A program made the translations under genes and the position numbers. This document shows, piece after piece, positions 30,070 to 32,790 of a DNA stretch of 37,911 nt; the first letter of the stretch is position 1, and the number at the start of each line of letters is the position of its first letter. The DNA is from a virus: UHGV virus genome UHGV-0078433; one strand, written 5' to 3'. Below the pieces are notes generated by a model. It was not told where the DNA came from. It worked only from the letters and a program-made list of their open reading frames with translations, and ran no database searches.

Positions 30070-30137
30070 TTGTTAATTTTCCTATATTGATATTGAGTTA
30101 TAGCGGCACACCCAATGGATTTGCCGCTGATGTTTGC

Positions 30138-30178
30138 TCACCCGGTTAGAGGTGAAAGACCAGAACTGTTAAAGAGCA
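30138..30178 (-). promoter_or_regulatory. nutR candidate: boxA TGCTCTTTAACA plus boxB-like hairpin with CUAACC in loop
   Basis: Immediately downstream of cro stop on - strand. Confidence 0.5.
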
Positions 30179-31159: not shown

Positions 31160-31220
31160 CCATAAAATTAAGTTTTCTTCAAAAATGCACTTGACCAATA
31201 AATTAAGAAGTCTTAAATTT
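31160..31220 (+). promoter_or_regulatory. pL with left operators
   Basis: -35 TTGACC (31191-31196), -10 TAAATT (31214-31219), palindrome AATTAAGAAGTCTTAAATT overlapping. Confidence 0.5.
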
Positions 31221-31265: not shown

Positions 31266-31305
31266 GCTCTTTAACATCGACGGACTCTCAACCTAACCGT
31301 TGAGA
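31266..31305 (+). promoter_or_regulatory. nutL candidate: boxA GCTCTTTAACA plus boxB-like hairpin TCTCAAC-CTAACC-GTTGAGA
   Basis: Between pL and N-like gene; loop shares CUAACC with nutR candidate. Confidence 0.5.
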
Positions 31306-31415: not shown

Positions 31416-31721
31416 ATGGTAACCATTGTCTGGAAAGAATCCAAAGGTACGGCAAAAAGCCGCTACAAAGCTCGCAGAGCAGAACTTATTGCCGAGCGAC
31501 GCAGTAATGAAGCACTGGCGCGAAAAATTGCGCTAAAGCTCTCTGGTTGCGTCAGAGCAGACAAAGCAGCATCACTAGGAAGCCTTTGCTGCAAGAAGAA
31601 AGAAGAAGTCGTTCGAAAAAATAGAAGTATTTATTACAAAGATTCAAACCCGTTAGGAAACAAAATACATGCAGTCCAAAAAATAAAATTGTACAGTAAA
31701 CTACCGTACGGTGCTTATTGA
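31416..31721 (+). CDS. N-type antiterminator (P22 gene 24-like) with arginine-rich motif
   Basis: ARM GTAKSRYKARRAELIAERR resembles the P22 N peptide GNAKTRRHERRRKLAIER (recall); start at MVTIVW with GGAG RBS rather than track start 31386. Confidence 0.7.
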   Translation: MVTIVWKESKGTAKSRYKARRAELIAERRSNEALARKIALKLSGCVRADKAASLGSLCCKKKEEVVRKNRSIYYKDSNPLGNKIHAVQKIKLYSKLPYGAY

Positions 31722-32062
31722 GTATGCTTATGGTGAAAAAGACTATTTATGTTAATCCTGACCGCGGACAAAACAGAAAAGTATCTGATAGAGGTCTTAC
31801 ATCTCGAGACAGGAGGAGAATAGCGAGATGGGAAAAAAGGATAGCATATGCATTAAAAAACGGTGTAACACCTGGATTTAATGCTATAGATGACGGTCCG
31901 GAATATAAGATTAATGAAGAACCAATGGACAAAGTTGACAAAGCATTAGCAACACCATTTCCTCGCGATGTAGAAAAAATTGAAGATGAAAAATATGAGG
32001 ATGTAATGCACAGAGTTGTTAATCACGCTCACCAACGAAATCCAAATAAAAAATGGTCATAG
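31718..32062 (+). CDS. Hypothetical AT-rich moron protein downstream of N
   Basis: ORF track; followed by its own terminator. Confidence 0.5.
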   Translation: MSMLMVKKTIYVNPDRGQNRKVSDRGLTSRDRRRIARWEKRIAYALKNGVTPGFNAIDDGPEYKINEEPMDKVDKALATPFPRDVEKIEDEKYEDVMHRVVNHAHQRNPNKKWS

Positions 32063-32085
32063 CCCACTTCGGTGGGTTTTTTATT
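32061..32085 (+). terminator. Rho-independent terminator
   Basis: CCCAC-TTCG-GTGGG followed by TTTTTTATT. Confidence 0.7.
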
Positions 32086-32091
32086 GTCTGA

Positions 32092-32193
32092 ACAAATCTA
32101 ATTTACTACCGCAAGCCACGCAGTGAAATGGGTGTGACTTGCTCAGGCCGCCAGAAGCAACGCGGAAAATCAATTCCAGCTTATTACGATTGA
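32092..32193 (+). pseudogene. Relic 3' end of a lambda-type N gene
   Basis: Frame reads IYYRKPRSEMGVTCSGRQKQRGKSIPAYYD, matching the lambda N C-terminus ...WYSKPGERGITCSGRQKIKGKSIPLI (recall); in-frame stop just upstream. Confidence 0.5.
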
Positions 32194-32200
32194 GGTGGTC

Positions 32201-32338
32201 ATGCTCAAGAAAGTCAAACGCCGACTTTACAAAGAAGGTAGATATTCATGCCAGTTGCCAAAATGCGACACAACAAAATGGAGTGTCGATGATTGGTGTA
32301 ACTGGATAGATAGATACGGAACTTGGTGGGATAAATAA
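32201..32338 (+). CDS. Small Cys-containing ORF (45 aa) with GAGGTGG RBS, below track cutoff
   Basis: Hand-translated MLKKVKRRLYKEGRYSCQLPKCDTTKWSVDDWCNWIDRYGTWWDK. Confidence 0.35.
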   Translation: MLKKVKRRLYKEGRYSCQLPKCDTTKWSVDDWCNWIDRYGTWWDK

Positions 32339-32394: not shown

Positions 32395-32637
32395 ATGAGA
32401 GTAAAAACTATGGGCGCAAGCCCATTAAGCGGTCGTATTTTTCAAGGAACATTAAACACTGAAAAAGGAATGTGGGTAGGAAAGAAAGAAGATGTCACCG
32501 AACAGGCAGTTAAGGCAGTAGCCGAACACATGATGATAAAAGACCAGAAATATGCATACGAAACGAAGGATGGCAAATGGCTGATAATAAGCCATCAACT
32601 GGTTGATAAATTACCAGAAGAGTTTATTGCTGGTTAA
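32395..32637 (+). CDS. Hypothetical protein
   Basis: ORF track; GAGGA RBS 7 nt upstream. Confidence 0.55.
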   Translation: MRVKTMGASPLSGRIFQGTLNTEKGMWVGKKEDVTEQAVKAVAEHMMIKDQKYAYETKDGKWLIISHQLVDKLPEEFIAG

Positions 32638-32765
32638 ATTCACTTTGGAACAAACAACAGAATAAACACTGCACTGTGTATTCATTCCAACGAGTGAATA
32701 CACGGAGCAATGTCGCTCGTAACTAAACAGGAGCCGACTTGTTCTGATTATTGGAAATCTTCTTT

Positions 32766-32790
32766 GCCCTCCAGTGTGGGGGCTTTTTTA
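32766..32790 (+). terminator. Rho-independent terminator upstream of c3
   Basis: GCCCTC-CAGTGU-GGGGGC followed by TTTTTTATAT. Confidence 0.5.

Follow-up and report, generated by a model that had tools for sequence, protein, structure and literature searches.

A probable HK022-type nun gene beside a phage-21-type N gene in a P22-like phage of E. coli

Directly downstream of the N antiterminator gene of a P22-like phage lies a small, AT-rich open reading frame, and its place in the left operon raises the question of what it encodes. The sieB and rex genes of lambda are exclusion genes of the pL region of lambdoid prophages, and sieB is annotated next to lambda N. The locus considered here belongs to the 37,911-nt virus sequence UHGV-0078433, the whole of which is called the window below. 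It represents a nearly complete genome of the P22-like kind, with Kapi1 and CUS-3 as the closest matches (62% of 25 kb at 95-97%) and with a repressor and a Cro of the P22/21 type.

Our comparisons indicate with high confidence that the gene is nun, the transcription-arrest and superinfection-exclusion gene of the HK022 type, carried by a P22-like E. coli phage or prophage and predicted to act through the HK022-type mechanism. It is an already known gene, which the original prediction, made from the sequence alone, had correctly sensed to be an exclusion moron. That prediction also called the function unknown, which is wrong given that the target, the mechanism and the RNA polymerase-bound structure of HK022 Nun have all been published.

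Identity, reading frame and composition of the gene downstream of N

The product was identical at 107 of 109 residues to chain N of PDB 6ALG, which is HK022 Nun on an E. coli elongation complex (E 8e-71, residues 1-109), and matched PHROG 5632, 'Nun-like transcription termination factor', over profile positions 1-112 of 112 (E 9e-71). It was further identical at all 26 residues to chain B of PDB 1HJI, the Nun ARM peptide solved with lambda boxB RNA. Only two residues are changed relative to HK022 Nun, S11R and D63E when numbered as in the solved protein, and both fall outside the ARM (residues 19-44) and the arrest segment (residues 87-109). The ARM of the predicted protein, including R25-R36 and Y39, is unchanged, and the arrest segment is identical to that of HK022, with H93, R94, N97, H98, H100, R102, K106, K107 and W108 all in place. 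The DNA of the locus shares 96.7% identity with HK022, HK75 and O276, a hybrid of HK022 and lambda, and 97-99% with mEpX1, mEp235, PDP110P1 and Kapi1; several records annotate Nun or a Nun-like protein. Scans of the protein against Pfam (none at E <= 1), NCBIfam and PADLOC gave no match, the N models of Pfam (N_peptide PF25694, N36 PF11438) included, nor did it match PHROG 271, the N family. As the first three hold no model for Nun, RefSeq, like the original reader, would be expected to call the gene unknown. The profile and structure searches that had been proposed as a check thus led to Nun and to no housekeeping phage function, which leaves the moron reading in place, since nun is an exclusion gene and HK022 nun mutants grow and lysogenize normally (PMC4124055; PMC5386594). 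The guess that an exclusion gene might lie here was likewise borne out, the product being 98% identical to HK022 Nun, a superinfection-exclusion protein.

Nun has a single known role, the exclusion of lambda and lambda imm434, two phages with nut sites in common (PMC4124055; PMC5386594). Its ARM binds boxB of the nascent transcript in competition with N, and RNA polymerase is arrested at pause sites with the assistance of NusA, NusB, NusE and NusG, after which Mfd clears the arrested complex (PMC4124055; PMC5386594). The structure solved by cryo-EM shows the stretch 87-109 winding its way between the nucleic acids and the zipper, lid and rudder of beta'; contacts to RNA, template strand and rudder are made by H98, N97 and H100, R102-S109 close into a loop that occupies a pocket next to the hybrid, and translocation is blocked both ways (PMC5386594). 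Substitutions of H98, K106/K107 and W108 have reported effects (PMC4124055; PMC5386594). Compared with other exclusion genes, Nun is unusually narrow in its specificity, acting on phages with lambda-type nut sites only (PMC4124055), and its target is transcription elongation rather than the membrane or abortive infection.

A different emphasis would make the protein mainly a non-specific toxin or abortive-infection factor that arrests host RNA polymerase everywhere once induced, instead of a nut-specific exclusion factor. Over-produced Nun is toxic to E. coli, and in vitro it arrests elongation complexes devoid of nut RNA (PMC4124055; PMC5386594); pL, moreover, would also transcribe nun here after induction. 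We nevertheless regard this as very unlikely, because the ARM that confers lambda boxB specificity is conserved at 26 of 26 positions and the PADLOC defence models did not match. The protein carries all of the testable sequence features that define the Nun family and is by these a member of it, and its 98% identity suggests that the copy in the window would be active as a nut-specific exclusion factor, the observations behind this being sequence identity, the anatomy of the locus and an insertion or deletion among relatives.

The open reading frame was listed at 31718-32062 on the plus strand, which gives 114 aa when counted from TTG 31718, a codon overlapped by the N stop codon. Over the ORF region the nun frame contains a single stop, against 3-15 in each of the other five frames, and a comparison with the HK022 nun codons found eight synonymous and two non-synonymous differences. 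The start of the HK022 nun CDS corresponds to ATG 31730, the solved Nun protein having 109 residues of which the first is V, and the nun start in the O276 record (MH547045) corresponds to ATG 31724 (112 aa). On the basis of these two CDS, one of these ATG codons is preferred and the TTG start is rejected as an artefact of the ORF-listing rule. Translation probably begins at ATG 31730, the counterpart of the HK022 start, so that we place the nun CDS at 31730..32062 (plus strand, 110 codons and a stop), based on the matches to PDB 6ALG, PDB 1HJI and PHROG 5632 and on the codon comparison. The plus-strand frame that had been described as a 114-aa ORF is therefore real, but its TTG start and its length are products of the listing. 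A 64-aa antisense ORF at 31747-31941 (minus strand) and other overlapping ORFs were dismissed, given that the sense frame is the sole open one and matches the solved protein.

The composition of the locus is as deviant as had been claimed. GC is 0.368 in the listed ORF and 0.358 in 31604-32097, compared to a mean of 0.483 (sd 0.04) for 345-nt windows taken across the whole window; 0.35% of these have a GC this low, nearly all at the nun locus, which is the lowest-GC stretch of the entire window (0.36-0.37 vs 0.483). The GC3 of the nun ORF is 0.24. The AT-rich block sets in about 110 bp upstream of the ORF, within the 3' end of N, whereas the N head and an orphan N tail beyond nun both have a GC of 0.484. 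N itself occupies 31416-31721, its stop overlapping the listed TTG, so the position just downstream of N was also correctly described. With a foreign composition, its own terminator, a promoter sequence of the O276 type and absence from collinear relatives, the insert fits the description of a moron-type accessory element of the pL operon. It resembles prophage morons in being accessory, in its deviant composition, in having its own terminator and the counterpart of an annotated promoter, in being present or absent between otherwise collinear genomes, and in the predicted protection of the lysogen from another phage. It differs from other morons in that it sits inside a gene, N, to which it gives a replacement 3' end.

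Transcription signals and the resident antitermination system

A 29-nt string annotated as 'nun gene promoter' in the O276 record (MH547045) is identical at 31669-31697 of the window (plus strand), inside the N coding sequence, with the -35 hexamer ATGCAG at 31669-31674 and the -10 hexamer TACAGT at 31692-31697. A generic promoter scan found none before nun, and these hexamers are weak matches to the consensus; the putative nun promoter is proposed from its identity to the O276 annotation. That record originates from the laboratory which studied nun transcription. A promoter that is weak by consensus fits the low Nun level described for lysogens (PMC5386594), a consistency rather than a proof of activity here.

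At the other end of the gene, the predicted terminator was confirmed as an intrinsic terminator at 32061..32085 (plus strand), in which a 7-bp stem (32061-32067/32072-32078) closed by a UUCG loop is followed by TTTTTTATT (T6ATT) to 32085. The nun stop codon runs into the stem, and the hairpin has a Delta G of -10.3 kcal/mol (z = -2.8). The hairpin recurs in HK022, its stem differing by a compensatory change (CCCAC/GTGGG vs CCCGC/GCGGG), and this covariation further supports the structure. Terminator hairpins also stand 3' of nun in Citrobacter (L014) and in a metagenomic contig (L015). The terminator is not indispensable to nun, as its stem is broken in the O157:H7 lineage described below.

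Upstream of these elements, a consensus scan placed a pL-like promoter (TTGACC-17-TAAATT) at 31191..31219 (plus strand), 3' of the c2 repressor gene and its terminator, where it overlaps a palindromic operator of the P22/21 type; it would drive N, nun and the early left operon in lytic growth. It is followed by a phage-21-type nutL at 31266..31305 (plus strand), comprising boxA GCTCTTTAACA (31266-31276) and a boxB hairpin CTCTCAACCTAACCGTTGAGA (31285-31305) that folds, and the corresponding nutR lies on the minus strand (boxA 30167-30177, boxB 30137-30156), recognized through sequence identity to lambda imm21. Both nut sites are letter for letter those of lambda imm21. The N antiterminator gene (31416..31721, plus strand) has a phage-21-type head with the ARM GTAKSRYKARRAELIAERR and, from about 31604-31612, an AT-rich end that we call tail A, which reads VRKNRSIYYKDSNPLGNKIHAVQKIKLYSKLPYGAY to the stop. 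Its product matched PHROG 271 (E 1e-31), and its ARM is identical to the phage-21 N peptide (PDB 1NYB chain A) at 22 of 22 residues; up to 31598, the DNA of the N head and nutL has 98.9% identity to lambda imm21.

A search of the window for the lambda boxB pattern returned only three matches, each with two or three mismatches, none forming a hairpin and all located in structural genes, which is the chance level according to shuffles. Self-targeting by Nun was rejected on these grounds. With N, nutL and nutR all of phage-21 type and no lambda-type boxB present, the phage should not be a target of its own Nun. Robert et al. reportedly observed in 1987 that lambda imm21 is not excluded by Nun, and this escape, together with the sequence difference, suggests that the phage-21 boxB should not be a Nun target. 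As far as sequence tells, then, the phage has a matched set of antitermination elements of phage-21 type, and beside it a factor directed against nut sites of the lambda type. Rfam at gathering thresholds matched nothing across the whole window, so no put-like or other curated RNA was detected, and ARAGORN found no tRNA in the window.

The same observations bear on a reading of the gene as a second N-type antiterminator paralogue that serves the phage's own early transcription, rather than as a terminator or exclusion factor. N antiterminators and Nun both depend on Nus factors, and both engage RNA polymerase through their C-terminus (PMC5386594). Homology links residues 22-74 of Nun to residues 1-52 of lambda N, a region that takes in the ARM and the NusA-binding region (hhalign probability 95.7%, E 1e-8; BLASTP E 6e-4) and in which the part after the Nun ARM corresponds to lambda N residues 23-52, and the gene stands in tandem with N in the pL operon, all of which would suit a paralogue. 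The two proteins differ, however, in their action, antitermination as opposed to arrest and termination, and the C-terminal half of Nun is unrelated to the N tail (ERKNxR-[WY]Y-..GRQK..), being instead identical to the HK022 Nun arrest segment seen inside RNA polymerase (6ALG). As the phage furthermore offers this ARM no lambda-type boxB and already has a matched phage-21 N, nutL and nutR, we consider a second antiterminator extremely unlikely.

For an exclusion factor of the HK022 type we propose the following course of events. King, Madsen and Weisberg are said to have found in 2000 that Nun is made by the repressed prophage, and in this expression HK022 nun again resembles prophage morons. 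In a lysogen, nun would be expressed constitutively from the weak promoter that lies within the 3' end of N, and the transcript would stop at the hairpin 32061-32085, so that kil and the other repressed early genes farther 3' would stay silent. Upon superinfection by a phage with lambda-type nut sites, such as lambda or lambda imm434, the ARM (residues 19-44) would take boxB of the pL and pR transcripts in place of lambda N, and with NusA, NusB, NusE and NusG residues 87-109 would thread into the active-site cleft of RNA polymerase. Nun would thereby tie the polymerase to DNA and to the RNA/DNA hybrid so that translocation fails; Mfd would then remove the arrested complex, and the early genes of the invader would go unexpressed. 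The resident phage would be spared, its own N, nutL and nutR being of the phage-21 type without a lambda-type boxB, and after induction the pL transcripts modified by phage-21 N would be expected to read through the nun terminator.

Anatomy and origin of the nun segment

About 0.5 kb at this locus, spanning the alternative tail of N, the putative promoter, nun itself and its terminator, is missing from the nun-less phage N7, which is collinear on both sides, and from lambda imm21, which has the same N head. The left part of this segment (31604..31721, plus strand, GC 0.36) codes for N tail A in the window and is a non-coding nun leader in HK022. Homology to HK022 and O276 begins at 31604, inside the N coding sequence, and the last ~36 N codons show three differences in 126 nt from the non-coding HK022 leader (L001 2502-2627). 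Tail A (VRKNRSIYYKDSNPLGNKIHAVQKIKLYSKLPYGAY and stop; ~31604/31612-31721) is homologous to the N tails of phage 21 and lambda but has diverged from them. As the tail A stretch contains the annotated nun promoter, promoter and N codons overlap in the window, and HK022, which is devoid of N, retains the N-tail relic as the leader of nun.

Directly after the nun terminator lies a further N tail, an orphan, at 32088..32193 (start 32088/32101, plus strand), which is an untranslated N 3' end that runs to IYYRKPRSEMGVTCSGRQKQRGKSIPAYYD and a stop. Its frame-3 translation is the N C-terminus of the nun-less phage N7, in agreement with the DNA alignment, and the gene that comes next is the DUF5484 gene, as it is after N in phage N7. 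A decaying, unexpressed passenger without present function, left behind by recombination with an HK022-like phage, would account for these recombination scars (the orphan tail 3' of nun and the mosaic N) and for the mostly 'hypothetical' labels in RefSeq, but is exceedingly improbable in view of the intact ORF, the predominance of synonymous changes (8 to 2), the conserved promoter string and terminator, the presence of the identical protein on 860 contigs and the lack of change at any residue known to matter.

The putative exclusion gene of the window shares with that of HK022 the Nun ARM and arrest segment, a leader with the annotated promoter sequence, a homologous terminator hairpin and a place in the pL operon. 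HK022, however, has no N and uses put RNA, and its nun comes after putL and the non-coding N-tail relic, with IS903 just downstream, whereas nun in the window follows an intact phage-21-type N in the same operon and has the orphan N tail after its terminator. The virions also differ, that of the window being P22-like and that of HK022 of the siphovirus type. The layout in which nun follows N is already represented among deposited sequences (mEpX1, mEp235, Kapi1, PA28 and Stx1a phages); a literature search for N and Nun together in one phage (mEp235, Stx) returned nothing relevant.

Orphan N tails that begin at ERKNxR-[WY]Y, or at the equivalent motif of the lineage in question, stand right after nun or its terminator in four divergent lineages, namely the window, O157:H7, a Citrobacter put-nun locus and the metagenomic phage encoding P0022. 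In the E. coli phages with both genes, a second, AT-rich N tail 5' of nun completes the N reading frame. We give roughly even credence to the view that nun is nested in, or derived from, N, either as a mobile segment that recombined into N via the tail repeats or as an N paralogue that was shortened by a stop codon and a terminator while its old tail survived. Both histories, joining at the head/tail boundary and truncation of a paralogue, would fit the sequences. In either case the HK022 layout, with put RNA, no N and nun, would be derived from an ancestor with N and nun, since the leader and promoter of nun in HK022 are a relic of the N tail that is still 98% identical. The nested architecture with its duplicated N tails is the only mildly new element at this locus.

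The related loci vary in detail. In O157:H7 Rafaela_II (L005 1313-2100; also L006), of the O157/Stx1a-phage lineage, N has lost its stop codon and extends 11 codons into nun; in the same lineage the nun terminator no longer forms a stable hairpin owing to mutation of its 3' arm, Nun has eight substitutions, including G21S and K42E in the ARM, and the orphan N tail after nun is of the phage-21 type. Citrobacter braakii L014 (MTJW01000031, 456-1060) has an HK022-like putL, a nun gene 65% identical, a terminator and an orphan N tail (PVERKNHRTWYKDANPFGNKIHAVQKSRGKSTPLI and stop) with a tail A middle, and 0.4 kb further 3' stands a different gene of the N family (PF26859). In the metagenomic phage L011 (ERR3481970_7033, 2330-2899), an uncalled 51-aa N-like ORF is followed by P0022 and then by a duplicate of the N tail of that lineage. 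P0022 itself joins the Nun arrest motif to an N-terminus of the lambda N type (MDAQARRREKRKEKQEEWK), which includes a lambda-N-type ARM and has 54% identity to lambda N 1-52. In L015, N and a 47%-identical nun stand in tandem with a terminator present and no clear tail relic.

Between nun and the recombination genes the window carries two small genes of unknown function on the plus strand, 32195-32338 (DUF5484, 47 aa) and 32395-32637 (DUF7446, 80 aa). HK022 is without this block of about 560 bp; its match to window 32651-32690 comes directly 3' of the nun terminator and is interrupted by IS903. The two genes are followed by a 9-bp inverted repeat, GTGTATTCA..TGAATACAC (32672-32700, plus strand), and about 70 bp after it by a strong terminator-like hairpin, GCCCTCCAGTGTGGGGGC with T6 (32766-32790, plus strand). 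Together the repeat and the hairpin (32672-32790) may be a tL-type terminator of the left operon.

Distribution and annotation of nun

The nun segment was found in 221 of 5426 complete E. coli genomes (~4%), always on the chromosome and mostly labelled 'hypothetical protein'. The upstream tail alone was found in 188 E. coli genomes, a count not above that of the segment, so there is no sign of a tail without nun. A phage-21-type N ARM was present in all six inspected loci with N and nun, which were the window, mEpX1 (counted by near-identity), O157:H7 Rafaela_II, 2014C-3338, CUVET19-1704 and LR-64-1. The usual home of nun is beside a phage-21-type N and not in the N-less arrangement of HK022. 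This point, and the insertion of an accessory gene inside an essential regulator gene while providing its new 3' end, both concern the locus, and neither alters what is known of how Nun acts.

Among 5.8 billion sequences the Nun family forms 22 clusters. The C-terminal arrest motif EDVMHRVVNHAHQRxPxKKW is kept in relatives down to 45% identity. RefSeq labels for Nun orthologues (H43-H66; P0001) read 'hypothetical protein', 'regulator' or 'transcriptional regulator'. As neither Pfam nor NCBIfam nor PADLOC has a model for it, nun goes under such labels in the ~4% of complete E. coli genomes that carry it, O157:H7 and Stx1a-phage lineages among them. This is so although Nun is among the best-understood exclusion factors that one phage directs against another, and recognizing the gene is of some small practical use for annotation. 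One Nun variant from E. coli (P0003, 119 aa) carries a tandem duplication of seven residues within the ARM (RIARWEK RIARWEK).
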